NCBI GenBank assembly: GCA_001724265.1
Contig: MEDY01000051.1
Coordinates: 1-64,000 of the forward strand
Direction: 5' to 3'
Source: Rhizaria sp. SCN 62-66
Taxonomy: Eukaryota
DNA: 64,000 nucleotides
A program made the translations under genes and the position numbers. Within the stretch, counting starts at the first letter, position 1; every line of letters starts with the position of its first letter. The notes beneath the pieces were generated by a model, which was given only the letters and a program-made list of their open reading frames with translations, was not told the origin of the DNA and did no database searches. Shown in pieces: positions 7,460 through 63,215 of the stretch.

Positions 7460-9944
<2,485 letters not shown>

Positions 9945-24250: not shown

Positions 24251-24315
<65 letters not shown>

Positions 24316-28703: not shown

Positions 28704-28760
<57 letters not shown>

Positions 28761-29354
28761 CAGTTTGATAATAACCAGTTTGATAACGATGGCAGCGCTA
28801 ACGGCAGCATGTTTTCCCCTTCTTTCGGCAGTTTCAACCGCGGCGGTGGTGACATGGACACCAACGACAACTACGCTGACAACAACAACAACAACAACAA
28901 CAACAGCAACAACAACAACAATAATAACACCTTTGGCAATAGCAACAACGGTAGCAACTTTAGCGGCGACGTGAGCATGCCGATGAGTTTGCCCATGAAC
29001 ATGAACATGAACAACAACGGCCCCAACATGTTTGCTGACGGCGGTCTCAACAACAACGGTTTGTTCCATGGCGGCAACACTAACGCCGGTGGCGCGTTCA
29101 CGGCGTTCGACTTCGGCGCTTTTGACAGCAACACCGCCGCCGACGGCATCGACCTGGGCCTCGTCAACGGGCTTAACGGCATGGACTCCGGCATGGGCAG
29201 CCTCAACGACATGAGCCGCGGCATGAACGCCGGCATGGGCTTCGGCATGGGCGGGCTCGACTCGATGCTCGGCGGCGGTGGCGGCGCCGGCGCCTCGCCC
29301 AGCCCTTTTGGGCAGCAGCAACAGCAGCAGGACAATGACGGTAACATGATGTAA
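22254..29354 (+). CDS. Two-RRM (ELAV/Sxl-like) RNA-binding protein with polyQ/N/A tracts; one ORF of about 2366 aa if TAG 26961-26963 is read as sense
   Basis: RRM1 NLYVRNLP...SKGVGFVRY (about 23805-24040); RRM2 NIYVGGF...GKGVGLVRY (about 27850-28100). ORFs 22254-26963 and 27042-29354 share a frame and are separated only by one TAG plus 26 open codons. Ends TAA. Confidence 0.8.
24252..24314 (+). repeat. (CAG)21 coding polyglutamine tract; further CAG/CAA tracts at about 28660-28762
   Basis: Direct reading; in frame with the RRM gene. Confidence 0.9.
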
Positions 29355-41469: not shown

Positions 41470-44051
41470 ATGTCCGCTGATAAGGTAGGTCCCTTGCTTC
41501 GCAACCAAGACCCGCAATATGACAGTCTGCATACCGCCCTCTACCCTTCGCGCATAAGCTATATAGACACAAGCATGACGATTATAGGAGGCTGCATGTG
41601 CGCTATGACGACATATTTGCGTAGATTTTGCATATGCTGTCATACTTGCTTTTGTTTCATCGTCCCGAGTTCTCGTCCCCCTCCTTCAAATCTCCCCTAC
41701 CCTCGCTCGCTTAACGCACGCTCACCCTCTTGCTTTCGTCCCCAATCCGCTCATCTATAACCTTGTCACGCTGTTTGCATATCGCTTTGCAGGAGTCTGC
41801 GATTGTGTTGGTCGACCCCATCTCCACCGGCGCCAACCTCGCGGACCTTCTCCTCAACCAGTACGTTCCCCGCCGCGACGCCCACTTTGGCGACGACAGA
41901 TCAGACATAACTGTGCACAGATCTTATTAATTTTACACTATAGTGTAATTCGTACCACGAAAATGTATTAACATGAATATTTCATCTTAAATCACCAAGG
42001 CGATACCAATACCATGACATACGTGTCTTATTTCTTTGATGCTGACATCACGTTGTCCCCCATGCTGCTCTCCGCACTCTTTTCCCACCCCCGCTTCACG
42101 CCACAGGGGGAAGAAGGTGATCGTGTTCTGGTCTACGAGCGTCACCACGGACCTGCACGCGCTGCTGCAGCCCGGCCTGCGGACCGACTACACGGCCACG
42201 CTGCACGAGACGTCCTCGGCCGCGGCCGCTGCACCGCTCGGCGACGACAGCTCGCGCGTGCGCTCCGACGCGGAGCTGGCCGCGATCGCCGCGCTGCTGC
42301 GCGCGACTGGGTACGACATTGCGGCCGTGGTGGCGGCTTCGGAGCTGGGCGTTGAGTGCGCGGACCAGGTAGCCGCACACATGGGGCTGCGCGGCAACGG
42401 CACCGCGCTGACCGACTGCCGCCGCGACAAGTTCCTCATGGGCGAGGCCGTGCGCGCGGCGGGCATCCGTGCCGTCAAGCAGCGCTTGTGCGCGACGTGG
42501 GCCGAGGCGCGCGCGTTCCTGCTTGAGTGCGGCATCCCCGACGGCAAACGGCTCAGTGTGGAGGAGCTGGCGTTGCAGCGCGCCATCGACGGGCCCGCAG
42601 AGGCGTCGGCCGCGCTGCGCATGGTCATCAAGCCCGCGCGCTCGGCCGGCAGCGACGACGTGTTCCTGTGCAGCCACATGGACGAGTTCGAGGAGAAGTT
42701 CAAGCACATCATCGGCAAAAAGGTACCCTACACCTATCGAAAACAAAAACATAGCTATAAAAAAAGAGGAGACTTGCACAAGAAGACCAGTCGAAATGTT
42801 TTTTTTTTTTTTCTTTTTTTTTTTCTTTATCATTGTTGAGCTTTTCTCTAAACTCTTAATTTCTACTTGGCTGTTGCATTATCTTATCTTTTGTCGCCTA
42901 GAACAAGGTGAACGTGGCCAACACGGCGGTGCTGTTGCAGGAGTACCTGCAGGGCGTCGAGTTCGTCATCGACACGGTGTCGCTGGACGGCCAGCACAAG
43001 ATGGCCGGGTGCTGGAACTACATGAAGGGCTCCGTCAATGGCGCCGCGTTTGTGTACTTCGGCATGAAGCTCGTCGACGGCGCGAACCCGGTCTCGCAGG
43101 AGGTGTTTGCCTACGTCAAGCAGGTGCTGGATGCGCTCGAGATCAAGAACTGGTGCGGACACGCAGAGGTCATGTATCACCCACTCACGGGGCCGTGTCT
43201 CGTCGAGGTTGGCTCACGGCCCCACGGCGGTGAGGGCATTTTCATCGAGGGCGCCAGGTAAGTACGCCCAATGTCCTGGCAATGTCAAGATTATGCGAGA
43301 CGAATATTTCATCACCAAAACATGAGATATCTCAGCTAAATTATATTTTTTTCAAGATGACATTTCAGATATTTGCATTGTTTTGCATTTATATTGATGC
43401 GCTACAATTTATCGTGATCAGGGCTCATATCATGCATGTATTTGATTGCACTACTGGTGATTTATACCACTCGTACAGGGCCGTGTGCGGGTACAGCCAG
43501 GTGGATCTGCTGGCCGCCGCCATGGCGGGCAGCGAAGAGTTTAGCACGTTTCCCGACACGTGGTCCGTCAAGACGGGCGCGGCGGCAATCATCGACCTCG
43601 TCAGCTACAAGGCGGGCGTCGTCAAGAACGTCAACGAGGACGCAAAGTACGTGCTTGTTCCACATGCATGCCACATGGAGGACACATAATCATCTTTATT
43701 GTGTTTGCTTGTTTGTTTGCTTTTGTTTCTTTAACTTCCCGTGTTGTTCCAAGACATTGCATGATTGATCTATGTAAGGCACATGTTCATGTCTTCATTT
43801 GTCTCCTCTCAAATTGTTTTCTTGCCATCTTCACGTTGTTTCACCTTTTTCCCAGGGCCAAAGTGGAGGACCTGGACTCATTCCGCCACTGGCACTGCCT
43901 GCCGGCCCCCGGCGCGACAATCTCGCCCACGATCGACTGCTTCACGACGGTGGGCTCGATCACGCTCGTGTCGGGCAGCGCCGAGGCCCTCAACGCCGAC
44001 ATCGAGGCCGTGCGCGAGGCTGAGGAGACGCTGTTCGACCTCGTTGAGTGA
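41470..44051 (+). CDS. ATP-grasp enzyme (L-amino-acid/peptide ligase-like); exons 41470-41484, 41793-41860, 42107-42722, 42902-43257, 43479-43646, 43856-44051; 472 aa
   Basis: IVLVDPISTGANLA, ELGVECAD, RRDKFLMGEAVRAAGI, VIKPARSAGSDDVFLC, LLQEYLQGVEFVIDTVS, GHAEVM...GPCLVEVGSRPHGG. Six GT-AG-bounded exons sum to 1419 nt in frame. Ends TGA. Confidence 0.88.
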
Positions 44052-44280
44052 CGAAGAAAGCAACATTTGACATGCGTTTGGAAACTCATTCAGAGAGAAA
44101 TACAGTTTTTTCAACTAACTAATACGGTGACTACATCGATGACTCTCAAAACTTGTCTGATGAAGATGGCAGCGAGGATGATTACTGTGCATTCTTTATT
44201 AAACTTATCACGTCTTACGACCATCTTCGTGATGACAAAGTGGAGGGTCCGATTTGTCAATTTCTAGAGCGTCACATTAT

Positions 44281-45744
44281 TCAGTACTTGTTGCTCCTTC
44301 GCACCTGCATCTGCCCTCCCCTCGCAGTCTGCTGCTGTTGATGCATCTGTCTCTGCCCCTGCTGCTGTTGCTGCTGCTGGCTCTGCGCCGCCCCACCACC
44401 GCTCTCGGCACCCACGCGCGTGGTGCGCACCGGCAGGAAGCGGTTGAGCCCGGTCTGCACAAGCGCGTTGCGGTTGCGCACCACGTTGGGGTTCACACGG
44501 CCGCAGCTCGTCACGGCGCTGCCCTCGACGTGCGAGCTCCCCACAGTGCGCGCGCTCCCGGCCGCCGCACCCGCCTCGTACCGCACCGGCATGCCCGGCA
44601 GCGCGAGGAACTGCGGCGCCTGGTCGCGCCGCGCCCATCCGGCCTGCCCGCGCGGCTCGATCCCCGCCGTGCCGAGCACCGCGGCGGCTGCGGCTGCGGC
44701 GGGCGGGGCTGCGGCGTCGGCGGCGGCCGCGCGCGCGGGCTCGGGCGCGGCGGCGTGCCCGAAGGCCGCCGGCGCGGCGTGGAACGTCGGCGTGCGGTGA
44801 TGCTGATGATTGGGTACGTAGTCGAGTCGCGGGCCCAAAGCGAAGGCCGGGTCAGTGACGCCGTAGCCGATGTCGCCCACGGCCGTGCCGCGCCGGCGCA
44901 AGGGGTGGTAGTTCGACATCGACGGCGGCGGCAAAGCGGACAGCTGAGACTGAGAATGGGAAAACCTAGACTTGCTTTCGTCACCGCCGCCACCGCCGTC
45001 GCCGCCGCCGCCCTTGTAGAGAAACCCGGAGACGACGCTGCTTTGGTCAGGGCTGAGGCTGTCGGGAGGGGTGTCTGCGCTCCAAGTCACGGTCTTGCCC
45101 AAGCCAGCCTTAGCACTCGCTCCAGCACCGGCACCAAAAGCTCCAACAGCAGCACTCGTAGCCGGAGCGTGGTGATTATTGTAGCTGCTGTGAGAGCTGT
45201 AGTTCCCCGACGGCGTGGGGGGATCATATGCACTGTATCCACTATTGACAGGGTTGTACGCAGCGTCCGCACTCGCGCTGGCGTTGTTGCTGTACGCGCT
45301 GGCGTTGGCATTATTGCTGTTTTTGTTGCCGCTGCCACTGGCGCTGGCGGCGGCGTGGAACGAGCCAGAGCTGGTGCGCATGTGCGTGGGGTAGGTCGAA
45401 AGCCCCACGGGAGCAGGCAGCGCGGGCGCGTAGGCCGCGGGCGCGGGGACGACACCGCTGGTCGACGCGATGGGCACGCCGCGGTAGGTGGGGATGCGGC
45501 CGACGCGTTGCTCGTACATGCGCGCTTCTTCGGCGTTGTCGCCGCGCGCGTGCATGACCGCCGAGAGCGCCGAGCCGACGCGACCGGAGGTGCTCAGGCC
45601 CAGGTTCACGTTCTTGTACGTCAAGGAGGTGGGCACAGCGGCGGCGGAGGCAGGGGAGTAAAGATGCTGGTGCTGCGGGGCGGAGATGCGCGCGCTGGAG
45701 CTGGGGCTGGTGGCCGAGAGATGTGGTTGTTGTTGCTGCTGTTG

Positions 45745-45793
<49 letters not shown>

Positions 45794-46041
45794 GGGTACG
45801 GCTGCTGCTGGGAGGGTGAGAATGAAGGGATAACAGTGGGCCGCGCGGAGGCAGCAATATCGGGGTTCTAGGCAATCGCAAGGTCGGCGTTCCAGGGCGG
45901 AATGCCAGCGCCGCCTGTCACGCGGCCGTTAAAGACGCGAGCGGTGTTATAGTGGGGGAGATCGTTGTTGTTCGTGCGCGCACCAGCGGTCTTTTGTGTG
46001 ATCTGGGAGTTGATCGGCGCCCACTGAGGAGGGTGCCACAT
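44281..46041 (-). CDS. Hypothetical low-complexity/polyQ protein; about 586 aa if TAG 45868-45870 is read as sense
   Basis: ATG at 46041 (MWHPPQWAPINS...) opens a frame that continues through one TAG into NPDIAAS...polyQ...VPTSLTYKNV and joins ORF 44281-45636 in the same frame. Ends TGA. No recognisable domain. Confidence 0.65.
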
Positions 46042-46832
46042 TTCAGCAACAACTAATCTATACAAAAATTGCAATAAACGCTCTGGTACGGGTTGATAGA
46101 ACGAGACTAGAGAGAGAAACCAACGAGAGTAGGTAGTGGCGGTGAGGGTTGGTTTCTTGACATCGGTTTCGGAGGACACATCACATTCCCGATCTTCATG
46201 AAAGCTATAATTTAAAGATAGTTGAAAAAAAAGTGTGATGTAAGAAATAAATGGTTTATGAAGTCATTAACGCCCAGTTTCCGCCACAGCACCATGTCAA
46301 ACAACGCGCTCGTTACTTTACCCCCCACCCCCTAACCAGCCGCCACCACAGATACGCAGGACGAGTCAAGCAAGCAGTCAATAGCAGCTGTTTTGAGCGT
46401 AGAGGTGATCTGAACAAACAGAAACAGAAACGAAAATAAACGTATAGTATACATGTACATATAGTGCGAATATTCATATAACGTAGTAGCCAACGAATAA
46501 CCTTGGAGAAAAGAACAAGAACTCGGAACAAAGAAAAAGAAAGGAACATAACAGCAGAGTCGTTATTTTACAAAACAAACAAGAAAACACAGAGACACAC
46601 ACAAAAAAATATTTAATTTGACTCAGCCACCAACATACAGACATGTCCACACGTGAACAATCAGAAAATAAGCGATATATATCCACGCGGGGCAGGCCCT
46701 CACACATCTATGCACGCTGCATCACCACTTCCGATAGCAAAACTTCGGTCACGTACGGACAAAGACTTACAAGACTTCGAGAAGTGAGGAGTCAGGATTT
46801 ATTTATGCTCACACAACAAACGCACCACAACC

Positions 46833-49800
46833 TCAGTCGAAGTTGTTGACGGCCTTGGCCTGGAGCGTCTGCAGCGCTTTGCGGTGCGCGATGAGCACCT
46901 CGATAGCGTTGACCCAGCGGTTGGCCTCCTTCTCGTCCGATGCCTCGAGGTCGATCGTGCGTTCGCGGCCCTGGACAGAGAAGCAGCACCGGTCGTTGGC
47001 GAGGAACTTGCCGAAGCGCTGGCGCTTGAGCTGCTCCGTGCAGCGTCCGCGCTCGACGGAGCGGATGCGGAAGATCTTCATGCGCGTCTCCTCCTCGACC
47101 ACCTTGGCCTTGGGATCCTTCCAGACGAGCCAGATCATGTCGTCCGTCACGTACACGTGGCGCGCGCGCGGCAGCGCCGTGCGCGAGTGCTTCTTGAGCA
47201 GCGCGCCGGCCGTGAGGAAGTTCTTGATCTTGGGCGGGATTTCCTTGATCTCGTCCGGAATCCGGTTCGTGGGCCCGGCAGAGTCGATGATCTCCTTGAC
47301 GTTCTTGCGCGTGCGGTCGAACGACAGGAAGTCGATGTCGTTGAACGAGAAGTCGACGCGGTTGAGCACGTCGATCACCGTCTGCGCAGCCGCCACAACG
47401 TCCTCGCGCGCGGCGTTCTCGGCCTTAATGCTCTCCATCGCCGGAATCACGCCCTGCGACTTCATCGTGTCGCGCACCGGCTGGCTCGCGTAGGCCATGT
47501 TCTCCAGCGGCTTGACGCCCGTGAGCACCACGGCCGGCGTCGCCACGTGCGCGCGAAGCACCTCGAGCATCGTCGCAACAAACGCCGTCTCGGCTGCCGT
47601 GACGGCGACGGGCGTGTGCACGAAGATGTTGGCAAGGAAGGTCGACACGGCGACGAGCGAGCTTGCCTCGCGCGCGCTGAGCAGCGTCGAGATAGACGCC
47701 TTGAGCGCGTCGTCGGCCATCGCCAGCGCGTTGTCCTCGGCGCGGCACATCGCACTGAGCGTGTTGAAGGCCTCGTTCACGACCTCTGGCGCACCGCCGG
47801 GGACGGTGGGCGAGTTGGCGCGCAGCAGCGTGAAGGCGAGCTCAATCGCTCCCTCGCCGGCCATGACCATGCTCGCGCGGTCGGAAAAGCACAGGTTAGC
47901 GAGCGTGCGGAGGCCGATGAGCGTGACGGCGGGGGCCGCGGCGTGAAGCTTGACGGCGCGCACGAGCTGCGACGCCACGCCGGGCTGGCTCAGGCGCTCG
48001 ACGTTGTTGATGGAGAAGGTGAGGTTGAAGATGAGGCGGAGCGCGAGCTCGGCGAAGGCGAGGTCGTAGCCGTGCGTGTTGAGCAGCGAGATGACGACTT
48101 CGGCGCCAATCTTGATGATCAGGTCCGCGATGTCCTGCAGCACCGAGAGGTTGCACAGGCCCGTGACCGAGAGGTGGCACAGCTCCAGGTTGGACACGTT
48201 GGCGCTGGCCACCTGCAGGATGGCCTGCACGGCGCCTTCGTCGACCATGGCGCGCATGTGGTCCGCGTTGCAGTTGGAGGCCAGCGTGGTGAGGGCGCGG
48301 ATGGCGACGTCAACCACAGCGGCGTTGTTGGTATGCGTCGTGAGCGCGACGACGGAGCACTGCACGCCGCCGGCCTTGATGATGACGTCTACCGTCTGCG
48401 GCACGGCGGCCAGCATCGACAGCGCACGGAACGCCGTGGTGAGCACGTCGACGTTCTCGTAGTTATTGAGAATGGCGAGCACGATGGCGTCGGCGCCGCC
48501 GGCGTTAGCGATGGCGAGCTTGTTGCCGTCGTTGGACTGGCACACGTTGCAAATGATGCAGATGGCCGAGTCCAGCACGTCGGGGTTGCTGATATGCTCG
48601 TTCATGAGCCCGATCACCACGGACGCGCCCTTAGTCGCCATCACGAACGCGCAGTTGGTCTCAGAGCCGTACGTCAGCTGCGCGAGCGCATACATCGTCG
48701 CCTCGAGCAGCTTCGCCTCCTTCGCGTGCTTCTGCAGGATCTGCATGATGAGACTGATACCGGACTCGACACCGATCTCCTCCTTGAGCGCGTCGTTGAC
48801 GGCAAAGTTGCCAAGCAGATACACGCCACAACGGACGAACTCGACGTTCTCGATGTTCTTGCGAATCGCGTCGATGAGCTCGCGGATCGAGTTGAACCCC
48901 GAGGCGGCGATCGCGGCCGCCACGTCATCGTCGTTGGATAGCTTGCCCAGCACCTTGGCCGCGGCGGCGATGACGTCGGCGTCCTCGTGCGTCGTCACAA
49001 TGCGCGTCAGCTGCTTCATCGTGCCGTTCGACGTCAAGTAGTCGGCCGCGGCACGGTCGTACGACAGCTTGCCCATGCCGTCGAGGTTCTTGCGCAGCTG
49101 CTTGGTCGCGACGGGCTCCTTGAACGTCACGTGCGGCAGTACGACCTGGCACTGCGCGCCGAGCACGTTGGGGTCCTGCAGCGCGGAGACAATGTCGTCC
49201 TCAAAATCACCGCAGAACTTCTGGAACGCGTTGGTGGCGCGCTTAAAGATGCTCTCGTTGTCGGGGTGCTTGACCATGAGCGCGGCCATGGCCTGCAGCG
49301 CGCCGTTGCGCGCGAGCGTGTGCACGGCGTCGGGGTTGTCGAGCATCATCTCGAGCTTGTCGAACATCTCAGACAGCGCATCCACGCCGTCGCCGTTGCC
49401 CGCCGCGGCCTTGACCATCGAGTGCAGGAATTTGGGCACTTCAGCCTCGTCCATCAGCAGCTTCTCGACGCTCGTGCGGCGCGCAAGCTTGTTGAGGTAC
49501 TTGCCGTAGGCCGTGAGCTCGTCGATGACGCGCTGCGTGACGACGCACGTGTCATCCTCCTTCTTGAAGCGACGCAGCACCCATCCCAGCAGCTCGAGCA
49601 TCGACAGCGGCTTTGCCAGCATGCGCTCCTTGTTGGCGTCCAGCGATGCGAGGGGCTCGAACAGCGTCGACGTGTTGAACGCGAGCCGCTCGGTGGCGTA
49701 GTGCGCGCGCAACGCCGTGGTGCAGAGCGGAATAACATCCTTTTCGCCCATCTCCGTGGCCATGGCCTCGCCGTGCGCGCCGGCCGTGAGCGTGATGAAC

Positions 49801-52480
49801 GTATTGACGCACTCGCGCTGCACGATGCCGTTGCCCGCGTGCTTCTTCATGACGGCGATGACTGCGTCAAGCAGGTTTGCCGCGATGAGCGCGCTCTCGG
49901 CCGTGGGGTCCTCGAGCAGCTGGTTCACGACCTGGAGCCCTTTGATAAGCTGGTCGGGGTCATGCATGTTCATGTACAGCGAGTCCACCACCACGCCCGC
50001 GCCGCCGGCAGAGACGAACTGCGCGGCGGCCGTGGCGTCGCCGATGGCGGCGGCCAGGATCTCGGCCGCGGCGGCCTTAATCACCTCGTTGCTGGGGTAG
50101 GTCTTGGCAAGCTGCACCACGAGCGGGATCACACCGGCCGCGGCGAGCGCGCTGATGTACTCGCCGCCCATCCGCGCGCAGTACGCCACGGACATGATCG
50201 CGTTCTCGGCCGCCGCCTCGTCCGTCGGGTCGCGTACCAGCGCCGCAAGCAGCGGCTCGAAGATGGGGTCGTTCATGCACGCCAGCGCCGTCGCACCGTC
50301 GCCGTACGCGAGCAGGTTCGCCAGCGCCAGCGTCGCTGCGCTTATGGTGCGCGCGCGCTCGCCGGCGTGCGCGGGCGTCAACAGCAGCGCGGCCTGCACC
50401 GCGGCAGTCAGCGCCACGCTCGCGTTGCCGCTGACGAGCTTCGGCAGATTCGCCGCGACGTTGGAGTAGGCGGCGACGGACTCGGTGGCGTTGGCTAGCG
50501 GGGCGGCGCGCGTCGCGGCCTGCTCGCGCGGCGCCTTGCGGAGCTCCGAGGCGTTGACCCAGACGGCCGAGATGGCGTCGTTGATCTGCCCCTCGCCCGT
50601 AAGGCGCGACATGAGCGCGGTGCCGAACTCGCGCATGGCGGCGTCCTCCTTGAGCGCCTCCAGCGCGTCGAGCACGGCGCGCGCGAGGCCGGCGGCGCGG
50701 AGCTTCTCGGCGCCGTTGGGGTCATGGTCCATGATGCCGTTCATGGCGCGGAACACGTTGCCCACGATCTCGGGGTCGTCCTTCCAGTGCGCGAGGATCT
50801 CGGCCAGCACGGCGGCCGCGCCTGCGGCCAGCAGCGCCGCCACGCCCTCAGGCGACTGGGCCAGGTTCGCCAGCGCACGGGTCAGCAGTCTGCGATAGGA
50901 GGAGAAAAATAGGAAGAGTTAGACGCAAAAAAATGTGAGTTTAACATATGTGGGCTCTCAGAAACGTAACGACAAAAGACAGACAGAAATCGACAAGAGT
51001 CAATGAAACGTGTGTAGAGTAGATGAACTAATACGTACTCGACGATCTCCCTGTCCTCGCTGTGCGTCTTGAGCAGGTCTAGGATCGAGGGCACGATGCC
51101 CGCGGCAATGATACGCGCATGCACGCCAGTATAGCGCGTCAGGCGCTCGTAGTTGTCCGACACGGCTTCGGCGATGTCGCGCGCGCCGGCGTTGACCGAG
51201 AGCGACGTCAGCAGCAGCTCCATGAGCGACGAGTCGAGCAAGTACACGGCGTTGGCTTCGCGCGTGAGCAGCTTGGCCAGTGCCTTGAGCACCGCGTACA
51301 GCGTCTCCGGGTCGCCGCCGTGGGCCGCTGCAAGCGCCATAAGCGCCTGCACGCCGCCCGCGGCGAGCACCTCGTACACCTTGCCGTCGTCCTTGCACAG
51401 GCGCAGCAGCGCGCGCGCGCCGGAGCGGGCAATCTTGTACGCCGTCTCGGAGCCTGGGGCCTGGGCGACGGTGTTGAGCACGTTGATGAGCCACTTGAGG
51501 CCCTCCTTCTGGATCATGAACTCTGCGTTCTCGTCGACGAGCATGAGCGACGAGAGCCGCGCCAGGGCCTGCGCCAGCTCGTCCGTGATGCCGATGCGCA
51601 TCGCCAGCGCGTCCGTCAGGTCCGACGGCTTGGCAATGAGCGTGAGCGCCGCGGCTGCGCACTTGAGAATAGCGGCGTGGTTGGGGTGCGCGTCGAGCGC
51701 GGCAGCGATGATGTCGACGGCGCCCAGCGAGCGCAGGTAGTCGACGTACTTGCCGCCGTGCGCGGCCGCGATGTTGGCGAGCGCGCCCAGCACGTGCTCG
51801 ACGAGCGCCTTGTCCTCGGGGAACTGGGACAGCGCCGTAAGTAGCTCCGAGACGATGGGCGTGCGCATGATGGCGTCGATGTGGCCGGCGTTGCGCGTGA
51901 TCGCACGCACGCACTCGGCGACGGCGGCCATCACGCCGGGCTCCTCGCGCATGCGCTGCGAGACGGAGCCGAGCGCGGGGGTGCACTCTGCGGCGACGAA
52001 CATGTCGACGTTGGGGTCGATGCGCATGAGCTTGGCCATGGCCGAGCACGACGCCGCTACCGTTTCGGGCTCGGTGTGCTTGAGCAGCGAGTGGATAATC
52101 TGCTCACCGCCGCCTAGGCGCTCGGCAATCATGCGCGCGATGTCGTCGTTGATGCAGAAGGCGGTGAGGCACTCGTTGATGGCGCGGTGCAGGTTCTCGT
52201 TGAAGGGGTTGAGCTTCTGGATGCGGAGGAAGGTCTCGATGACGCCCTCTTCGATCATTTCTTCGATCGACACGGCGTCAACGGCGAAACCCTTAAAGCA
52301 GGAGATCGAGTACATAACCATGTTGCTGAACTTCATGTTGCGGTTCATATCGCCCAGGTGGCGGTTAATCTCGGTCTTGTTTCGGGCGATGCGGCGAACG
52401 TTCTTGCGGGCCGGGCCGGCGCGCTTGAGGCTCGCCAGGGCTGCCTCGGGGGTCCAGCCCGCAGGGACTGGGTGTGCCAT
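46833..52480 (-). CDS. Large armadillo/HEAT-repeat protein with C-terminal PH domain (architecture of apicomplexan glideosome-associated connector, GAC); exons 51039-52480 and 46833-50889; 1832 aa
   Basis: Continuous ARM-like repeats (GAVDIIAAALDAHP, GGVQALMAL, GVIPLVVQLAKTYP, GGADAIVLAI). PH domain FLTAGALLKKHSRTALPRARHVYVTDDMIWLVWKDP...CFSVQGRERTIDLEASDEKEANRWVNAIE. Intron 50890-51038 (GTACGT..CAG) joins the exons in frame (5499 nt). Ends TGA. Confidence 0.85.
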
Positions 52481-53220
52481 ATGCGCAGCACTGCACGCAA
52501 AAATGCAGCACAAGGCAAGGAGTAAAGGTCGGACAGAGCGAGGTTCGGTGATGGCAGGGCGAAAGGAGGATCGGGGGGCGAGAGGGATTCGGGCGGGGAG
52601 AGACGAGGGTGAGTGGAACGGCGCTGTGAAGGTGATGCAACAATGGGACAAAGTACGGGCTATGCTGGGAAAGAAACTGATTCGGGGCGAGTAAATCAGA
52701 ATGGAGGGGCGCGATAGGCTCTTCGCGCGTGGACCGCACGCGGTCGTCCGACTTGGGCTAATCGGTAAACTAAAAGAGAACATAGCACTGCGGATCGACC
52801 GCCCATACATGCAGCCTTTCGGTATGAAGCAAATGCGACCACATAAAATACTTCATATAATTCTGTGATTTATCAAAGCTTTTTTTGACCCATTACGGGA
52901 CGTTTCTGATGTTGGGAGTTTCGTTATGGTCGTTGTCGACTCGCTCTGGCAGGCGGTTCGCAAAAAGTCTCCCGAGGATCGAAATTTCGTTTGAGCGAAA
53001 CGCAAGTTCTCGTTTACGGTTCGCCCTGCCATAACCACTCCGTTAGTGACTTAAAGACGCACTTTTGATTTAAAACTATGCCCTCAATTTTTATTTCTAA
53101 ATTCATTTCTCGTTTAGCTCTAACTTATTGATCGTAAACTCTTCCGCCGCTGACCACTTTCTCCTCCGTTTGCCACCCGTTGCCCCGTCCCCTTCGTCCG
53201 CCCGGTCTCTACTAACACAG

Positions 53221-54830
53221 ATGTGGCCTGCGGCCCCCTTTAGCGTACCTGGTACCCCCATTGTGCGGTATCCGCCGCCAACGCCCGTCGTGCTCACCAC
53301 GCTGGGTCCCTCCGCAGGGTTCGCCGCCAGTCCCGCCCCAGTCTCCGGAAACACTCACTATATCTCGGGCGCTGCTGCTGCTGGCGCGGCGGGGTCGGCT
53401 GCTGTGGGCACCGGCCACGGATATGCGCCCCAAGTGATCCGGCCCTACCGCTCAGTGCCCTACCTTCCCGGCGCAACGACCTCCACAGGCCCTCAGCAAC
53501 AGCACCAGCCTCAGCACAACAAGCTTCAGCCCCACAACTCTTACGGCCTCAGCTGCAGTCGCGGTCACAGCCAGGCTTACAGCCACGACGCCCAGCCGCA
53601 GCAGCACCAACCGCACCCGTCTCAGCACAGCACTAACGCCGGTCCCAGTGCTGTCAGCGCTGCTAGTGGTGTCAATGGTGCCAATGGTGTCTATGGGAAC
53701 ACGAGCTACGTGGCGCCGCCGTCGCGCCCCGCCTTCATCCTGCCTCACCAGGGCCTCTCAACCCCTGCCCTGGTCCCGATCCCCGTCCCCGGCTCCGGCC
53801 CTGTCCCGTCGACCGCGACCGCGACTTCGGCGGTGAGCGCGGCCACGGCGTCGGCGCGTCTCAGCGCCGCCCGCGGTGCCGCGCCCGCGCCCGCAACCGC
53901 CCCCCTAGCCCCCGCGTCCGCGCCGCGCTCTGCGCTGCCGACTCACAGTCACTCTGCCCACGGCCACTCTGCCCGCGGCCACGCGCCCGTGGCGGTACCG
54001 AGCGTGGCGGCGGCGACGAACGCGATCAATGTGCCCGCCACGGCGCCGCGGTTGGGGCTCGCCTCGGGGGCGCGCATCGGTGAGCACGTCCCTCACGTCC
54101 CGCACGTTTCACACGCTCCGCAGAGCGCCGCTCACGGTCATGCTGCGAGCAGTGCTGCTGCTGCTGAGGAGTACAATAGCAACGATGCGAGCTATCTGTC
54201 AGCCCTGCAGACGCCGCACCACACGCACAAGTCCTACAGCGGCAGCAACCACGCGAACAGTCATCGCGCCAGTCATCGCGACACCGAGGCGGCGACGACG
54301 AGTGCACACCCGGCTCAGGCCCAGGCTCAGGAGATTGCTGCAAGGACCGGCTTTGTACAGGCGACCCGCGTTGCCCTCACCGCGCCCTGCGCCAGCTCCC
54401 GCGGCGTCGCCCACAGTCACCAGCAGCACGCCGCCCACAGTCACTCCCACGGCGCCGCCGCCCACGGTCACCCCGCGGCCGCCGCCGTGCCTGTGGGGGC
54501 GCACGGCCACTCGAGCATGCGGCTCACCGCGCCCGCCGCGTTCGCCGCGAGTGCGAGTGCTGCACCGCTGAACCACGCCGCGCTGCGCTCGCACACGGGC
54601 GCGAACAACAACAACATCGCGCTGGCCGGTGGCGGCGGCGCGCTGGTCGGCGCGGTGCCGGTTGCGACCCTCGCTGCTGGTGGTTCCGCAGGTGTCATCA
54701 GCGGCGCTGCCCACGGTCACCCCGCTGTCCACGGTCACTCCGCGGCTGCGCACAATCAGGTGCACGATGTGGGGTCGCCGCTGCGCTGGTACTCCGCGCG
54801 CCCCGCACTCAACGCGCATAGCACCGACAA

Positions 54831-54871
<41 letters not shown>

Positions 54872-55350
54872 GCTAGGCCCACGGCAACGGTGGCCAGGCT
54901 CACGGCAACATGGGCCAGCATGTCGCGCTTGGCAGCGACGACGCGCCCGTGGCCACCGTGCTTGCGTATGATGACGACGAGGACGCTGAGGGTTGCCATG
55001 ACGGCTACAACAGCAACGGCGATCCTCGTACCGCTGCAGCGAATGGTAACGACTATACGTACAGCCAGGGCGCGTTCAACCAAGGCGTGTACCCCAACCA
55101 AGGCGCATACCCCGCGACACAACAAGGGGGCAGCAACCCTTCGCAAGCTGACAACCACGCCGAGAGCAATGCTGATGACTCTGACCAGTACGATAATCGG
55201 CAACAGCAGCCTCAACAACAACAGCAGCAACAGACGATGTCCGTGACTTCGGGTGCGACCACCGTGCATGTAAGTGCCTCGCCCACTTACACCTCGACCG
55301 TGGTTGTGGGCAACGACGACACTTACGTTGTTGCCACCTTGCCCCCTCAG

Positions 55351-55388
<38 letters not shown>

Positions 55389-56430
55389 GCCTTCTATGTC
55401 TCTGCCGCTGCCTGAGCTGCCTGCCGCTCTCGCCACCGCGTCAATGAACGCTGTCGATGTGACTGTAGCCTCGACCAAACCTCATCTTGCATATCAGCAG
55501 CGCCCGGCGCCTTACACTGAGCCTTACGCTGTTCAGCAGCAACAGCAGCAACAGCGTGGCGCGGCTGTCCAGGACGTGGCTAGCCCCAGATCCCTGCTGT
55601 CAGCAACCCCCGCGCCCTCGAAGCCGCTGCCGTCGCCCTTTTCGCCCCTCGACCACAGCCGCAACGCCGCTACAGATCCTCCCGAGGCGCATGCAGTCGA
55701 CCCGCATCAGGGCACTTACATTTCCGAGCGCAACCCTTACACGCAGCAGTCTAAGCCGCACCTGGGCTCGCCGCACCACCGTGCGCCACGCTCCCCTTTG
55801 CGCACGGCCACGCGCCCCGGCGCCGTCTTTGTGCCGCTGCCCGCTGCGCCCGCAGACGCGAGCGGGTTTGCCGTGCTGCCCGTTGGCGCGGTGGCTGGTG
55901 GCGCGTTCGTCGCGGTGCCCTCGGCCAACGACGTGGAGGCCGACGGCGGCGAGTACTGCGGGCTCTTTGCGCGCGAAGATACGATTAGCGGCGCCCGCAG
56001 TCACTTGGCAAGTGCTGGCCACATTAACGCCGGTATCAGCGTCAACATGAGCAAGCTGGGGCTGGCTCTGGAGGGCGCCGAGGCGTACTTGCGCCCGCAA
56101 GCGCCTCATCAGCAACAGCAGCAGCAGCAGCAGCAGGTTGGCTCCGACGACAGCGATCTGCCCGTGCTACCGTCTCCCCAGCAGCAGCATCAGCAACATC
56201 ACCACCAGCAGCAACACGGCGCCTTTGACGCCACAAGTGCTAATCTGAACATGAGCACGGTGCTCAGCCCCATCCACGCCCGCTACCAGCCGCGTCTCGC
56301 TGGCGCTGGCGACGCCGCTCACAATGTGCTGGCCAACGTCAGCGGCGACTGGGACGACGAGGAGGAGGCGGTGCGCCGCTACAGGGCCAAGCTGCAGCAA
56401 CAGCGCCAGCAGACGCAACAACAACAGCAG

Positions 56431-56471
<41 letters not shown>

Positions 56472-57273
56472 ACAACGGATGCCTTCTGCAGGCTCTCTCG
56501 ATGTGACCACCGCCGCCGCTGCCCCCGCGCCTGCCGCCGCCCCGAGTGCGACCGGCTTCGGCAGCGGTTCCGTTGCGCTGCCGGCGTGGACGCAGCTCCC
56601 AAACAGCCGCGTCGCCGCCGACATCACTGTCAACAACAGCAACAACAACAGCAGCTGGAGTGGCGCAAGTGCCGGGGACGCGAGCGGCGGCGTGCGGCTC
56701 AAGGTGGTGCAAGTGCCCGTTCCCGCCCCGCCGGGCTCGCCCTCCTCCCTCGCCGGCCCCCGCGCCAGCGCCAGTGCGAACGCGCCTGCGCCTAATGTTA
56801 GCGTGGCTGCCGTAGCTCCCAGCGCGGCCGACGACGTGGCTGTGAGCAGTGGTGGAGTGACCGTGACCGTGTGCAGTCCCCAGCGCCAGCCGCCCCCGTC
56901 TCAGGCTCAGTTGTCTCAGTATAGGCGCCCGTCCCTGCCCCTGCCCCAGCCCCAACCGGATCTTAGCTCTGACGCGCAGCAGCCGCCGCCGAACGTGACC
57001 GTGAGCGCTGGCGGCTTCACTATGAGCGCCACCTCGTCATACCCGACGTCCAGTGCACCGGCCGCGAGCAACAACAGCAGCAGCACCGCTATGATCTCGG
57101 GCGCGATTGCGACTGCAGCGTTGGCGACGGTGTACCAGCGCGTGCCCGAGTCGCCGCGGACTGCGATGGCGCGCGAGGACGCTGCCGCGCGGGCAGTGCT
57201 CGACGCACTCTTCGGCCACGAGGTCGCAGTCGTCACGCAGACTTGGCGCAAGGACCTCGGCCTTGTCGCTTAA
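53221..57273 (+). CDS. Hypothetical intrinsically disordered Ala/His/Gln-rich protein; about 1350 aa if TAG 54874-54876 is read as sense
   Basis: ORFs 53128-54876 and 54910-57273 are in the same frame, separated by one TAG and 11 open codons. ATG 53221 follows CTAACACAG. Ends TAA. No recognisable domain. Confidence 0.65.
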
Positions 57274-57949
57274 GCGAGCAAGCGGGCTGGAAGCAGCAAG
57301 TACGTAGCAACGTGTGTCACTTCACCGCCCAAAAGGATCCGTCGAGGTTGTGGTTGAGGTTTAAGCGATAGACGCTTAATATCACGATTTATAGATAGTT
57401 TCATTCGAGGTTTATAGTACAAATACAGCATGATATCTTAGATATGTCAAACACATCAATGCTTGCTCAATTGTAAATAAATGGATGACGACATCGACTG
57501 TGACGAGTCAATTGGTTCTCAAAAAAGTTTCGATGATGACAGCGGTCATCACCGACAGCGAAGAAGAAGAAAAACGAGATCGTGGCCAAAAAAGCACGTG
57601 ATTGAGCGACTTATCGCGGTCGATACCTGTGGGCCCTGGACACTAAAACCAAATTCTTTTGATGTTATTTGATTGAATGTATACGGGATAATTTTGTGGC
57701 TATTCGAAAAGACTATAATATGACTTATATCGACCTGGGGCATGCTCTCTTTTTCTTCGTCATCCACCTCTCACTTGAGGGTGCTCCTTTTCCTTCAACG
57801 CACAGTCTTGCGCACCGCACTCATTCCCAGCTTGTTTTATTTCCCGCTCGTATTTTTGGACACTCTCTTGCCTTCCGACCCACCCAGAACCCAACCAACT
57901 TCGCATCGTTATCCCTCCACTTTCCCCCACTTTCCGCTCCGCCTCGTTC

Positions 57950-60900
57950 ATGCAAGCGCCCTCCGCCCCCAAGGTCTCGCTCCCTGGGCTGGCGCCTCCG
58001 TCCGTGGCCCCGGGCACGGCGTCTGCCGCGTCGCTTGACTCGGGCCTTGGCGCCTTCGACCACCCGGGCTCGCCTGTGCCGGCGATGGGCCCCCAGGTCG
58101 TGATCACGCACTCGGCGCTCAGCTCCCGCACCAAGACGGAGCTGCCCGCGCGCCGCCCCGGAGGCGCCTCGCGCCGCGCGCCCTCGCCCCACGGCGCGGG
58201 CGGCTTCCACGGCCACACGCACCACACGCCATGGCGCGAGAAGGTCACCGAGGACTCGGCGGCGAACCCGTTCCTGGTAGACTTCCTCCGCAAGCACAAC
58301 GTCATGCCCGAGCCCTCCGCGGGCGACGCTACACAGGGCCAGTTCCCCTCCTCGGCCTCCTCTACCAGCGGCGGCGCGAACGGGAGCTCGACCACAGCCC
58401 CCAGAGGCGGACTGTCGACGAGCGGCGGACCCGCGCGCTCGCTGCCCGACTCGTCCACGGCGTCGACGGACGAGCTGGCCGACGCCAACTCGCCGCTCAC
58501 GCCCGACGCCTTCCATCAGCACGACCTCGCCGTGCCCGCCGGCTCCGGCTCCCCGCACGGACTCTTTGGCCAGCGCACGCTTGCGTCCGGCCCCGGCGCG
58601 GCCCCGGCCGTGTCTCTGGGCACCCCCAGCAAGGGCCTGCCGCCGCGCCGCCCGCCCTCCTCGGCCGCGAGCTCCGCCGCCGGAGCCGCCGCCGCCGGCG
58701 CAGCCGCGCCCTTGCTCTCCACCGCCGCTGCCGCTGCCGGCAGCTTCGCGGCCGCGCCCCCCGCGTCCCCGCGCTCGCTCGCGCACCCGCTGCCGCACAC
58801 CGCGGCCCCCGTCTCTATCTCGGGCCTGCCCGGTGCGGCGCCAGCGAGCCCCCTGGTGTTCCCCGCCGGCCGCCGCGGGTCCGACTCGACCTTCATCGCG
58901 CTCCCGCCACAGTCGCTGCTGCTCGCACAGGGCGGCAGCGCTGCCGCCAGCTCCACCATCGCCGGCGGCAGCGGTACGCATGTCTCCGCCGCCGGTGGCA
59001 GCAGCAGCAGCGGCAGCAGCAGCGGCAGCGGCAGCGGCGCGACGGGCTCGGGCGGCGCAGGGATCTCGTCGCTGCACATCGAGGTGCGCAACACGCCCGC
59101 CATGATGAACAGCACGCTTTCGGCGGCAGCAACCGTGGCCGCCGCGACTGGTGGCTCGCGGTCCAGCACGCCCGTCGTCACCAACGTCGCCGCCGCCAAC
59201 GCGGCCCTCGCGGCGCTGTCGGCGCTGGCCAGCTCGGGCAGCCCCGCCGACGGCAGCAACAGCCGCCCCGCGCCCACCGTCTTCAGCCTCAATAACAACA
59301 GCGCCAACGCGAGCATCCTGGCCAACATGGGCGGCAGCAGCGGCAGCCTCCCGGTGCCCGCCGTCTCGCTCATCAACAACCCCACCGCCCACAGCATCAG
59401 CAGCAGCAACAGCAACGCGGTCGCCAGCGCGCGCTCCCGCAGTAGCAGCACCGCCAGCACCGGCTCCACGGCCTCCGACACCGCCGCCGCCACGGCCGCC
59501 GCGGCGGCCGCAGCGCTGCAGCTCCCGGTGACGGCCAACGGTCCCGCGTCGCGCCGCGACTCCGCGTCTGGCGCGCCGGGCGGGTGCAACGGCGTGACGG
59601 GCGGACCGTCGATTCTCTCCGCGACGCCGCTGGGCGCGCACTCGATCGCGCGTGAGTCGCGCAAGGTCGCGCTGCAGCCCGAGTACTCGAAGGTTGCGTG
59701 GAACCGGCACGTCATGGAGCTCGAGCAGGCGGACAAGCGCCGCATCGCCGACCTCCAGTTCGGCGTCACTGACTCCACCGCCTCCGCGGACGGCGCCGCC
59801 GGGGCCGCCAGCGCGGCCAACACGGCCCGCGGCCCCGGCACCGCCCGCGGCCCCGCTGACGCTGACGCCGGCAAGGACGGCCAGGACGGCGGCGACGGCG
59901 CCGGCGCCGACAGCAGCGCGGACTTCGGCGGCCCCGCGGCGCCCAGCACTGCGGCGCCGGTGCCCGCGGAGCTGTCCGCTGCGGCCGCCGTGGCCTCCGG
60001 CGCGGTGTCGGGCATCACGGGCCCGCGCGTGGCGCCCGCGGGCGTGAGCGCGGAGATGTTCGCGGCGGCCGAGGCGCAGCTGACGCCCTACGCGCGCTCC
60101 AAGCTGCCCGTGGAGCACGCGCTGTGGCCGCGCACGGGCACAGGCGAGGTCGTGATCCCCTGGTCCGTCGTCGCGCAGCACAACATCAAGGCCGACTCGT
60201 GGATGGTGCTCGACAACATCGTGTACGACATCACGGCCTACATTGCCTTCCACCCCGGCGGCCAGATCGGCATCGTCAACTTCTCCGGCGACAATCGCGG
60301 CCACGCGCCCGCGGGCCACCCTCAGGGCCAGCACGAGGGCCGCGACGCCACCGAGGCCTTCAACCGCTACCACAAATACCTGGATCACCGCAAGATGCTC
60401 GGCCCCTACAAGCTCGGCGTCATCGCGCCCTCCAAGCCTTGTCCCAGCGCCGGCGCGCCGAGCGGCGGCAGCGGCTCCAGCGCGAGCAAGGCCAACACGG
60501 CCCCCGCGCCCGGCGCGACGGGTGGGGCTGGCAACAGCGGCGGCGGGGCGGGCGGTGGCGGCGCGGGCGGGCGCCCCCCGACGCTCTTCCCCCCCGAGTC
60601 CGTACTATGGCCGATGGTGCCGACCACGGAGCGCGAGTCGGGGTTCGAGCCGGTGATTCCGTGGAGCGAGATCCGCAAGCACAACATCCGCGCCGACGGC
60701 TGGATGGTGCTCGACGACATCGTGTACGACATCACAGCCTACATCCCCTCGCACCCCGGCGGCCAGATCGGCATCGTCAACTTCTGCGGCGAGAACGGCG
60801 GCGTGGCGCCCAACAAGGACCACCCACAGGGCGAGCACAAGGGCTCGAGCGCGACCGAGTCGTTCAACTTTTACCACAAGTACTTGCCGCACCAGAAGAT

Positions 60901-61165
60901 GATGAAGCAGTACCGCATCGGCGTTGCCGAGAAGCGCACACCCGAGCAGGAGGCCGCGGCCGCCGAGGAGATCCGCCTGCGCAAGGAGAAGCTGCTCAGC
61001 AGCAAGAGCAGCAGCAGTAGCAGCAGCAGCAAGAGCAGCAGCAGCAGTAGCAGCCGTAGCGGCAGCAGTCACAGCGGCAGTCACGGCGGCAGCGGCCACA
61101 GCAGCGGCCACAGCAGCAGCAGCAGCAGCAGCAAGCACAGCAGCCACAGCCACAGTCACAAGTAA
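57950..61165 (+). CDS. Protein with two tandem cytochrome b5 heme-binding domains (CYB5R4/Irc21-like) after a long disordered N-terminus; 1071 aa
   Basis: Two copies of HN...D.WMVLD.IVYDITAYI..HPGG...AT E.FN.YH (about 60150-60425 and 60650-60930) with both heme-ligand His positions present; upstream RKVALQPEYSKVAW resembles the CYB5R4/Irc21 pre-b5 motif. Ends TAA. Confidence 0.85.
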   Translation: MQAPSAPKVSLPGLAPPSVAPGTASAASLDSGLGAFDHPGSPVPAMGPQVVITHSALSSRTKTELPARRPGGASRRAPSPHGAGGFHGHTHHTPWREKVTEDSAANPFLVDFLRKHNVMPEPSAGDATQGQFPSSASSTSGGANGSSTTAPRGGLSTSGGPARSLPDSSTASTDELADANSPLTPDAFHQHDLAVPAGSGSPHGLFGQRTLASGPGAAPAVSLGTPSKGLPPRRPPSSAASSAAGAAAAGAAAPLLSTAAAAAGSFAAAPPASPRSLAHPLPHTAAPVSISGLPGAAPASPLVFPAGRRGSDSTFIALPPQSLLLAQGGSAAASSTIAGGSGTHVSAAGGSSSSGSSSGSGSGATGSGGAGISSLHIEVRNTPAMMNSTLSAAATVAAATGGSRSSTPVVTNVAAANAALAALSALASSGSPADGSNSRPAPTVFSLNNNSANASILANMGGSSGSLPVPAVSLINNPTAHSISSSNSNAVASARSRSSSTASTGSTASDTAAATAAAAAAALQLPVTANGPASRRDSASGAPGGCNGVTGGPSILSATPLGAHSIARESRKVALQPEYSKVAWNRHVMELEQADKRRIADLQFGVTDSTASADGAAGAASAANTARGPGTARGPADADAGKDGQDGGDGAGADSSADFGGPAAPSTAAPVPAELSAAAAVASGAVSGITGPRVAPAGVSAEMFAAAEAQLTPYARSKLPVEHALWPRTGTGEVVIPWSVVAQHNIKADSWMVLDNIVYDITAYIAFHPGGQIGIVNFSGDNRGHAPAGHPQGQHEGRDATEAFNRYHKYLDHRKMLGPYKLGVIAPSKPCPSAGAPSGGSGSSASKANTAPAPGATGGAGNSGGGAGGGGAGGRPPTLFPPESVLWPMVPTTERESGFEPVIPWSEIRKHNIRADGWMVLDDIVYDITAYIPSHPGGQIGIVNFCGENGGVAPNKDHPQGEHKGSSATESFNFYHKYLPHQKMMKQYRIGVAEKRTPEQEAAAAEEIRLRKEKLLSSKSSSSSSSSKSSSSSSSRSGSSHSGSHGGSGHSSGHSSSSSSSKHSSHSHSHK

Positions 61166-61857
61166 AAACAACTCGCCTTAGAGATGTACAAAAACATCTA
61201 CAAGAAACAAATGTGCTCATCTGTGCTCATCTGTAGTTCCGGTACTGCTGCATATGCTTGACGTTAACTTACCATAAGAACAGCCTACAATTCCAATAAT
61301 AATCAAAATACGTTTATTTTTGTCACTTTGCTCTGTTTACACGCAATGTGCAGTACGAATACGTGTTGGTTTTTGGCAACATTTTACAACATCTTTGTTC
61401 AAGATCTTTATTCCTTATGTTGACATCTTGCTGGTCGCAGTGTTTGTTGATTCAAAACACTGTTTAATCTTTTGGATGTGCATACGCGTGTGTATATCTT
61501 GGTCGTGTCTTATGTCTGTGTCTTCTGTGCTTCGTTTTTTTGAAGTTGCTGTCTCTTGCTGTCTTTTGCTGTCCTTTGCGATGATTTGTTTCGCATCTGA
61601 TTTGTTTCACATCCGCATATCATCGCATCGCATGCTATTCCGTGTGTATTCTTCTTTCTGCACTCTTTTACTAGCATTGTTGTTAGGAAACCTTTGCCCA
61701 TTTATACCCTACCTATTATCATGTCTCTTTTTTAAACACACAAGGGGATGCTTAGACACGATACGACACTCTCACGTTTCATGTTTCGCCACCAATATGG
61801 TGCGTTTCAGGGTTCGTTGTCTTATTATTACAAAACTTGTTTTTTGTGTTGTCCTTA

Positions 61858-61884
61858 TTGTTGTTGTTGTTGTTGTTGTTGTTG
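61858..61884. repeat. (TTG)9 microsatellite, non-coding
   Basis: Direct reading of the sequence. Confidence 0.9.
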
Positions 61885-63215
61885 TTTCGTTTCATATTGT
61901 ATCGATCGTTCGCCCTCTTGTTTCCCCCCACTCTTTGTACTCGCCCACACGTGTCGTGCTGTTTCCCTTCGAGTCATCATGCAAGTCACAAGCAAGCCGT
62001 TGCTGTTTCGCGACTGCGCCCGCGTTGCTCCTCTCTTCTCCGATCCGCTCCTGACTCTTGCTCTCTCCTCACATTCATCGCGCAACATCACGTACAGTCG
62101 TCTCAGATTTGTTTCGTACATTCCATTCTCTTATTTCTCCTGCAGTACATAGGAGTCGCAGTCGCCGCGTGGTCTTCTCCTCGCGCGCGTGTGCTTGCTT
62201 ACCAGTCTGTTTTGTCAGTTTATTTGTTCGTTTCGTCTCTTTCGCACCACAGTTTTGTTTGTTTTATTTTTATCTATGTGTCATATACGATTATGTATAT
62301 CTTCATTTATATATCTCAATCTTTCTCTGCACTGTATCTGCATGTCACTGCTGCACACACACACACACATATGGTTCTCGAATGAACGTATGTAGCGACT
62401 ATATCTGCGTTTGTTTCTGCCCCGCGTCGTGTTCGCCAGCTGCCCGCTGCCGATTTATTTGTCTCACCTGGCCACGTATGTCATGTCAATGACTGTTCTT
62501 TCTGCCCCCTGCATGCTCTGTCTTGTATTTTGTGTATAGTTCGTCTGTGTATGTCGTGATGTTACTTATTTTGACATCAATTTCTTCTTCTCGACCACTT
62601 TGGTCCCACGTGCGGCTGTGCTGTTTTAATAACAGATACACACACCAGCACGTCAAGCCAGGAGCATAGTGGGCTACCTGCGCTGCGACTGCAAAGACAC
62701 ATTTGATTCTGACTTTGTCCTGACCGCCTTCGCGAAGCAGCGTGAAGAGAGATAAGAGACTGTTTGAGTCGAGAGCACACTTCTTGAGTTTAGAATCATA
62801 TTAACGCATCGAATACAATTTGCATGGATATTATCCTCATACGATCTACGAAAAAACCACCCTTCAGTTTGCATCTGCATCATTTATCGGCATAATTTGT
62901 GACTGGTGACAGTAGTGTGGTGACCTGGCGACACACAACGGCAGAGAAAAGCAGCCGACCCCACTCGTGAGGAACGATTTTTCTGAACAAAAATTCAGTG
63001 TGTCTGTTCGGCCAACTGAAATGTAACCAAGTGAAATGACTACTATATCAACATTTATTTTGTAAATCCACAAGTTTGCTTCAAAATTGCGTATAACTAC
63101 GATGTAATATCTTGTGATACTTTTCCTTCTCCACCTTCCCTTACAACGCAATAATCTTCATTCTTCTTTGTCACAGGCTGTCTCCTCGAGCTCGGTGGCG
63201 TTTTCTTTACCACGA

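Follow-up and report, generated by a model that had tools for sequence, protein, structure and literature searches.

The 64,000-nucleotide stretch analysed here (the window hereafter: positions 1 to 64,000 of the forward strand of contig MEDY01000051.1, from the GenBank assembly GCA_001724265.1 of Rhizaria sp. SCN 62-66) contains three genes in which an in-frame UAG codon lies within otherwise intact coding sequence. The site at the centre of this analysis is the TAG at 54874-54876, which falls in a gene that extends from 53221 to 57273 when this codon is read through. With a probability that we put at roughly 0.6, UAG is a sense codon in the nuclear genes of this organism, most likely one for glutamine, and genes end only in UAA or UGA. 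The parts of this reading differ in strength: that UAG is translated here is very probable and, given that it is translated, glutamine is the probable meaning. UAA and UGA are kept as terminators, and both are absent in frame from coding-grade sequence. The elements of the 53221-57273 gene that bear on this reading are the following.

53221-57273 (forward strand): the gene of 1350 codons with the TAG read through, in the frame that, of all six, has the best codon usage both 5' and 3' of the TAG.
54828-54873 (forward strand): an (AGC AAC)n microsatellite with a period of 6 and 6.7 copies, encoding a Ser/Asn run directly 5' of the TAG, and the place where public contigs end.
54863-54918 (forward strand): a 21-base tandem repeat encoding N-x-x-[TAG/Q]-A-H-G (Tandem Repeats Finder: period 21, 2.7 copies, 77% matches, score 63).
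54874-54876 (forward strand): the in-frame TAG, at codon 552, its letters read directly.
54910-54912 (forward strand): the first ATG to follow the TAG in frame, within the second copy of the repeat, at a place where the first copy has GGT.
56833-57264 (forward strand): a conserved C-terminal stretch, residues 1205-1348, matching a 165-residue metagenome protein, P0004.
57271-57273 (forward strand): the TAA that is the real end of the gene, after which GC content drops to 0.46 in the next 150 bases.

Translation table 11 splits this gene into two pieces in the same frame, 53221-54876 (551 residues from the first ATG) and 54910-57273 (787 residues), and several lines of evidence indicate that the two belong together. 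The TAG is preceded by 591 stop-free codons and followed by 798, after which comes the TAA at 57271-57273, so that the long open frame claimed in the preliminary description is indeed present. Scored with a codon table for which nine other genes in the window served as the training set, the frame that holds the TAG ranked first of the six at 30, 45, 60, 100 and 200 codons on either side, and the 50-codon flanks scored -3.74 before and -3.71 after it in log-likelihood per codon, with a GC content at third codon positions (GC3) of 0.86 and 0.76; the training genes have a mean of -3.63 and a 5th percentile of -4.13. In the 150 bases 3' of the TAG, GC content is 0.66, compared with 0.35-0.52 past real gene ends. 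The product is a low-complexity protein rich in Ala, Ser, Gln, His and Asn, in which a recurring AHG[HN] motif stands at residues 246, 304, 414, 427 and 497 before the TAG and at residues 553 and 560 directly after it; the motif was not found in the last 790 residues of the protein. Both this motif family and the 21-base repeat therefore span the TAG. Together these data show coding-grade, continuous frames on the two sides of TAG 54874, and the TAG itself would then be an ordinary sense codon within a single gene of 1350 codons. The ATG at 54910 reads as a variant of the repeat and an incidental methionine, and is not a likely start.

The repeat is best seen in the letters around the site, which read AGC AGC TAG GCC CAC GGC AAC GGT GGC CAG GCT CAC GGC AAC ATG GGC CAG CAT. 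These are exactly the letters on which the preliminary description based a tandem duplication of seven codons with TAG aligned to CAG, and the duplication holds: the unit at 54874-54894 is identical to that at 54895-54915 in 16 of 21 letters, and in the phase given by Tandem Repeats Finder the column with the TAG reads TAG, CAG and CAG across the copies. Of the gene's 4011 offsets, 62 show agreement at this level (at least 16 of 21) between adjacent 21-mers, and they fall into four zones. The 21-base unit is a real local duplication, since the other three zones are plain microsatellites of 3 or 6 bases.

Reading TAG through joins frames in two further genes of the window.

26961-26963 (forward strand): the second in-frame TAG, in the Gln/His run KQQQQHQHQ-TAG-QQG of the gene 22254-29354.
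45868-45870 (reverse strand): the third in-frame TAG, in the context LAIA-TAG-NPDI, in non-repetitive sequence near the start of the gene 44281-46041.

The first of these genes has 2366 codons and two RRM domains, one on each side of its TAG. As a control, every stop triplet was listed that is flanked on each side by 50 or more codons free of stops and whose frame ranks first of six on either flank, which gave three TAG of 60 such occurrences, two TAA of 33 and two TGA of 118. All three TAGs have log-likelihoods in the coding range (-3.54 to -4.00) and a GC3 of 0.70-0.88 on both flanks, whereas each of the four TAA and TGA candidates falls short on one flank or both (-4.57 or worse, GC3 0.34-0.54), and one of the four is the real end of a gene with calponin-homology (CH) and EF-hand domains. 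In the gene models, which amount to about 14,000 in-frame codons, there are 639 CAG, 113 CAA and 3 TAG codons, and neither TAA nor TGA. A scan for in-frame stops based on GC3 alone had returned 22 apparent TAG matches, mostly in antisense frames that share the wobble position, and was replaced by the codon-usage tests.

As to what UAG would mean, glutamine is suggested at two of the three sites, by the TAG/CAG/CAG column in the repeat and by the Gln/His run at 26961. Decoding would require a single anticodon change, giving a tRNA-Gln with anticodon CUA in place of CUG, and eRF1 would no longer recognise UAG, as in known UAG-only codes. The N-domain motifs through which eRF1 recognises stops are named in PMC5304391. 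The TAGs may be few as a result of having arisen by C-to-T change from CAG and of having settled so far only in weakly constrained, Gln-rich tracts. The change of UAG to glutamine is also described as the commonest of non-canonical variants (PMC5304391). The one-step neighbours of TAG in the genes of the window include CAG (639), GAG (489), TCG (362), AAG (353) and TAC (214). Since CAG is the most abundant of these, and the step from it is a transition, a CAG-derived TAG is to be expected in weakly constrained, Gln-rich tracts under any meaning of the codon, nonsense included. This limits the weight of the repeat, which the preliminary description had held to be the best internal evidence for UAG as glutamine. 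The alignment of TAG with CAG is real and fits glutamine; by itself, however, the repeat records one C/T transition, which would look the same under nonsense or under missense to another residue, and the case has to be carried by evidence from outside it.

The same reasoning bears on the possibility that what UAG encodes is some other residue (leucine, glutamate, tyrosine, lysine or a further one) and that TAG 54874 is a tolerated missense change from CAG, which we consider unlikely. There are precedents for it: UAG alone has become a leucine codon in exLh, which is rhizarian (PMC5304391), as well as in a phyllopharyngean lineage (PMC11687900). The abundance of CAG in these genes would place TAGs in Gln tracts whatever the residue, and the third site, LAIA-TAG-NPDI, is without any Gln context. 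Glutamine is favoured by two of the three sites, where the neighbouring or aligned codons encode Gln, and by being the commonest reported outcome (PMC5304391). It would also need only one anticodon change in tRNA-Gln.

Whether UAG is read at all can be approached from the ends of genes, from the conservation of sequence beyond the TAGs and from other assemblies. Among 14 gene ends in the window, nine are TAA, five are TGA and none is TAG. This count leaves out the TGA at 50882, which is out of frame and belongs to the second exon of a gene with armadillo and PH domains, and the frame 44341-45819, which is antisense to the better-scoring gene 44281-46041. Were TAG to make up a fifth to a quarter of stops, as in eukaryotes with the standard code, the chance of finding none among 14 ends would be about 2-4%.

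Beyond TAG 54874, an exhaustive search with residues 151-1350 as the query against 1.84 billion proteins gave five matches, four of which were low-complexity; the fifth was P0004, with an E-value of 6.5e-13 over the last ~150 residues. In a pairwise BLASTP comparison P0004 matched at 1e-21, with 57 of 150 residues identical and with the last 45 residues forming a well-kept motif. P0004 is the one member of its cluster and is named 'hypothetical protein'. The match shows the frame past the TAG to be real coding sequence: a conserved protein end lies 798 codons past the TAG, where translation from the upstream frame can arrive only by reading the TAG. A search with the whole 1350-residue protein against proteins of near its length gave no homologue, poly-Gln words having probably crowded the candidates; the public protein sets searched hold no protein that spans TAG 54874; and neither a scan of viral contigs with the C-terminus of the protein nor a scan of genome contigs with the exact 51-base pattern behind the TAG returned a match. 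The protein search with the N-terminus of the 45870 gene also gave no homologue. Pfam returned no family for the 53221-57273 protein or for its C-terminus, and across all three TAG genes it returned RRM domains only.

The TAG at 45870 is the one seen in other assemblies. It is the same in L001, an independent 5.4-kb contig of this organism that differs from the window in 2 of 5418 letters and was the one contig recovered in a metagenome scan with the armadillo/PH protein. It is also unchanged in a contig from a 2025 run, from a strain that differs at positions 45856 and 45932.

These observations sit poorly with a standard code in which TAG 54874 is a C-to-T nonsense change from CAG, leaving a truncated or dead gene, and the other two TAGs are lesions of the same kind. 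All three TAGs are in low-complexity genes that evolve fast and might tolerate truncation; TAG is the main nonsense codon to arise in genes rich in CAG; and direct support was obtained neither for translation past the TAG nor for the letter at 54874. Against this, such an account needs one lesion in each of three of the 15 genes of the window, always a TAG and never a frameshift, TAA or TGA, with 528-798 coding-grade codons left behind it. It also leaves unexplained why TAG is missing from 14 gene ends. A diverged strain retains the TAG at 45870, and a relative conserves the C-terminal motif that lies past TAG 54874. We regard premature termination as quite improbable.

If UAG were generally a stop, the three genes could yield short and long forms through leaky or programmed readthrough at these sites by a near-cognate tRNA-Gln. 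The rarity of TAG codons would suit such a mechanism, as would the RNA that follows the TAG at 54874: the 120 bases 54874-54993 fold more stably than shuffled sequences (z -2.39, with 3 of 200 shuffles as good), in part through pairing of the repeat with later sequence. The other two sites have no notable fold (z -0.06 and -1.30), and the three have no common context or motif, the next letters being G, C and A. The lack of a common fold or sequence context makes a common readthrough element unlikely, and readthrough gives no account of why no gene ends in TAG, so that we see very little room for it.

That ribosomes never meet the TAG, whether a short in-frame intron takes it out, U-to-C editing of the RNA changes it or it is an assembly error, is the least credible explanation of all: the organism does have introns, one of which has the TAG at 8312-8314 (reverse strand) as its acceptor, and the site adjoins a microsatellite where public contigs break, but, of the 175 in-frame GT..AG spans across TAG 54874, the 60 that were listed have a GC content of 0.63-0.71, as against 0.40 in two checked introns, and are without pyrimidine tracts, the nearest upstream GT (54789) lies 88 bases from the AG of the TAG, which is no multiple of three, misassembly of repeats gives length errors and no clean substitution, and there are two similar TAGs, one of which (45870) is confirmed in other assemblies. 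The TAG at 8312-8314 had itself been a candidate sense codon and was rejected as the acceptor of an AT-rich intron, a case that TAG 54874 does not resemble.

Returning to UAG as a glutamine codon, a number of points weigh against it. There are just three TAG codons, all of them in fast-evolving, low-complexity proteins, and the conserved genes of the window (Hsp70, AGPS-like, patatin and CH/EF-hand) are without TAG. This makes the codon far rarer than in described cases such as exLh, with 384 in-frame UAG codons in 71 genes (PMC5304391). The choice of glutamine draws on a context that is suggestive without deciding the matter, being one that change from CAG to TAG yields whatever TAG means. 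In the protein searches no ortholog was found that covers any of the three TAG sites, and none of the three could be placed at a conserved position. Within the 64 kb of the window, ARAGORN found no tRNA genes, no Rfam family was detected and no eRF1 gene was found. The Logan contigs of four runs that cover 42000-61900 break at 54821-54876, and none of those listed bridges this interval, leaving the T at 54874 without independent support. Transcript evidence is similarly patchy: a polyA-RNA contig covers 53313-53704 only, and although the summed depth of RNA words exceeds that of the flanks along all of 53288-57271, this sum takes in low-complexity matches from other organisms and gives no evidence of a single transcript. 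Finally, 14 gene ends are a small sample, and one or two of them may precede further exons. In two cases, at 33132-33134 (reverse strand) and 5667-5669 (forward strand), the TAA is followed by GT (TAAGTG and TAAGTA, respectively) and could be a splice donor, with the gene continuing in further exons.

If the glutamine reading is correct, the data may capture an early stage of codon capture in a GC-rich, non-ciliate eukaryote, in which UAG has gone from gene ends, has ceased to act as a stop and has come back so far only as a very rare glutamine codon (~0.4% of Gln codons) through change from CAG to TAG in Gln-rich, weakly constrained tracts. This scenario we offer tentatively, as a possibility that falls somewhat short of probable.

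The window as a whole is eukaryotic in character. It is GC-rich and intron-bearing and carries 15 genes on 64 kb, an arrangement unlike that of ciliate genomes. Eukaryotic domains identified in its large frames include calponin-homology together with EF-hand, Hsp70, patatin/DUF3336, RRM, SET, PUB, armadillo together with PH, and cytochrome b5. Exons have a GC3 of 0.74-0.92, and the two introns that were checked have pyrimidine tracts. The Hsp70 gene contains a GT-AG intron at ~11775-11958. The armadillo frames at 50882-52810 and 46833-50744 (reverse strand) form one gene, 46833-52810, joined across an AT-rich GT-AG intron at ~50890-51012 and with the PH domain at the end of the protein. A gene similar to alkyl-dihydroxyacetone-phosphate (alkyl-DHAP) synthase at ~7460-10142 (reverse strand) is likewise multi-exon, with a match to FAD-oxidase_C at an E-value of 7.7e-39. 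For one conserved exon, in the AGPS-like gene, the best named match is from Capsaspora owczarzaki (63% identity), followed by animals, which is a statement of similarity and not of phylogeny. At 4512-5669 (forward strand) a frame of 385 residues with a low-complexity N-terminus has two SpoVS (PF04232) stretches (E-value 1.7e-35); the domain is of bacterial and archaeal type, the contig otherwise eukaryotic, and transfer may account for its presence.

The stretch was found in bioreactor, wastewater and activated-sludge metagenome runs of several studies, which indicates that its source is an uncultured eukaryote of such systems. A scan of genome contigs with the CH/EF-hand protein returned nothing. 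Some strain variation is visible among the runs: two of them (X4 and X5, from a 2025 study, one being polyA RNA) come from a slightly different strain, with a contig over 45811-46859 that has six changed letters and a 6-base insertion, while two others (X2 and X3) and L001 have two changes in common, at 50330 and 50332.

Nuclear changes of UAG alone, with UAA kept as a stop, are described from a handful of lineages, namely Iotanema, exLh and, among ciliates, a few phyllopharyngeans (PMC5304391, PMC11687900). Were the present reading true, a GC-rich eukaryote of wastewater would add a further case and an independent origin of a UAG-only code; a literature search, which did not extend to supplements, found no wastewater or activated-sludge eukaryote described with such a code. 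Three TAG codons in ~14,000 could then reflect a young reassignment, a natural intermediate that would bear on the debate between codon capture and an ambiguous intermediate. There would also be a practical consequence, as gene callers with standard settings cut such genes in two at TAG, so that annotation of this organism calls for table 15 or for its code to be checked.

Among the closest published systems is the nuclear code of Iotanema spirale, in which UAG encodes glutamine while UAA and UGA are stops (Panek et al. 2017, PMC5304391). In both cases UAG alone is a sense codon, here probably so and with glutamine as the proposed meaning, UAA is the main terminator with UGA also in use as a stop, and neither organism is a ciliate. 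Iotanema, an anaerobic fornicate, is known from its transcriptome, and the meaning of its UAG was inferred from many alignments to conserved positions, whereas the ~14,000 codons considered here contain three TAGs, none of them at a conserved position. Among ciliates, the phyllopharyngeans Hartmannula sinica and Trochilia petrani translate UAG as glutamine, the code of 'table 15' (McGowan et al. 2024, PMC11687900). They resemble the present case, as read here, in the change of UAG alone to glutamine, in the retention of UAA as a stop and in that the code was recognised from genome data without culture. In those ciliates, however, UAG is about as frequent as other sense codons, and checks covered 363 and 130 internal UAGs, with 58-70% at conserved glutamines; here the codon is very rare.

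The rhizarian exLh, a member of the Sainouroidea in which UAG encodes leucine, is also alike in that only UAG has become sense, and its genes end exclusively in UAA (56) and UGA (15), as compared with nine TAA and five TGA here (PMC5304391). It differs in the residue and in the heavy use of the codon, set against a context pointing to glutamine and a sparse use in the window. The broader UAR codes for glutamine (NCBI table 6), found in many ciliates, in hexamitid diplomonads and in Dasycladales (PMC5304391, PMC2984419), likewise involve a change from stop to glutamine and have TAG beside CAG. In them TAA too encodes glutamine, whereas in the window TAA ends nine of 14 genes and never occurs within coding-grade sequence. 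What sets the present case apart from the known UAG-only codes is that TAG is extremely rare, that it is confined to tracts of low complexity and that the organism is of another kind.

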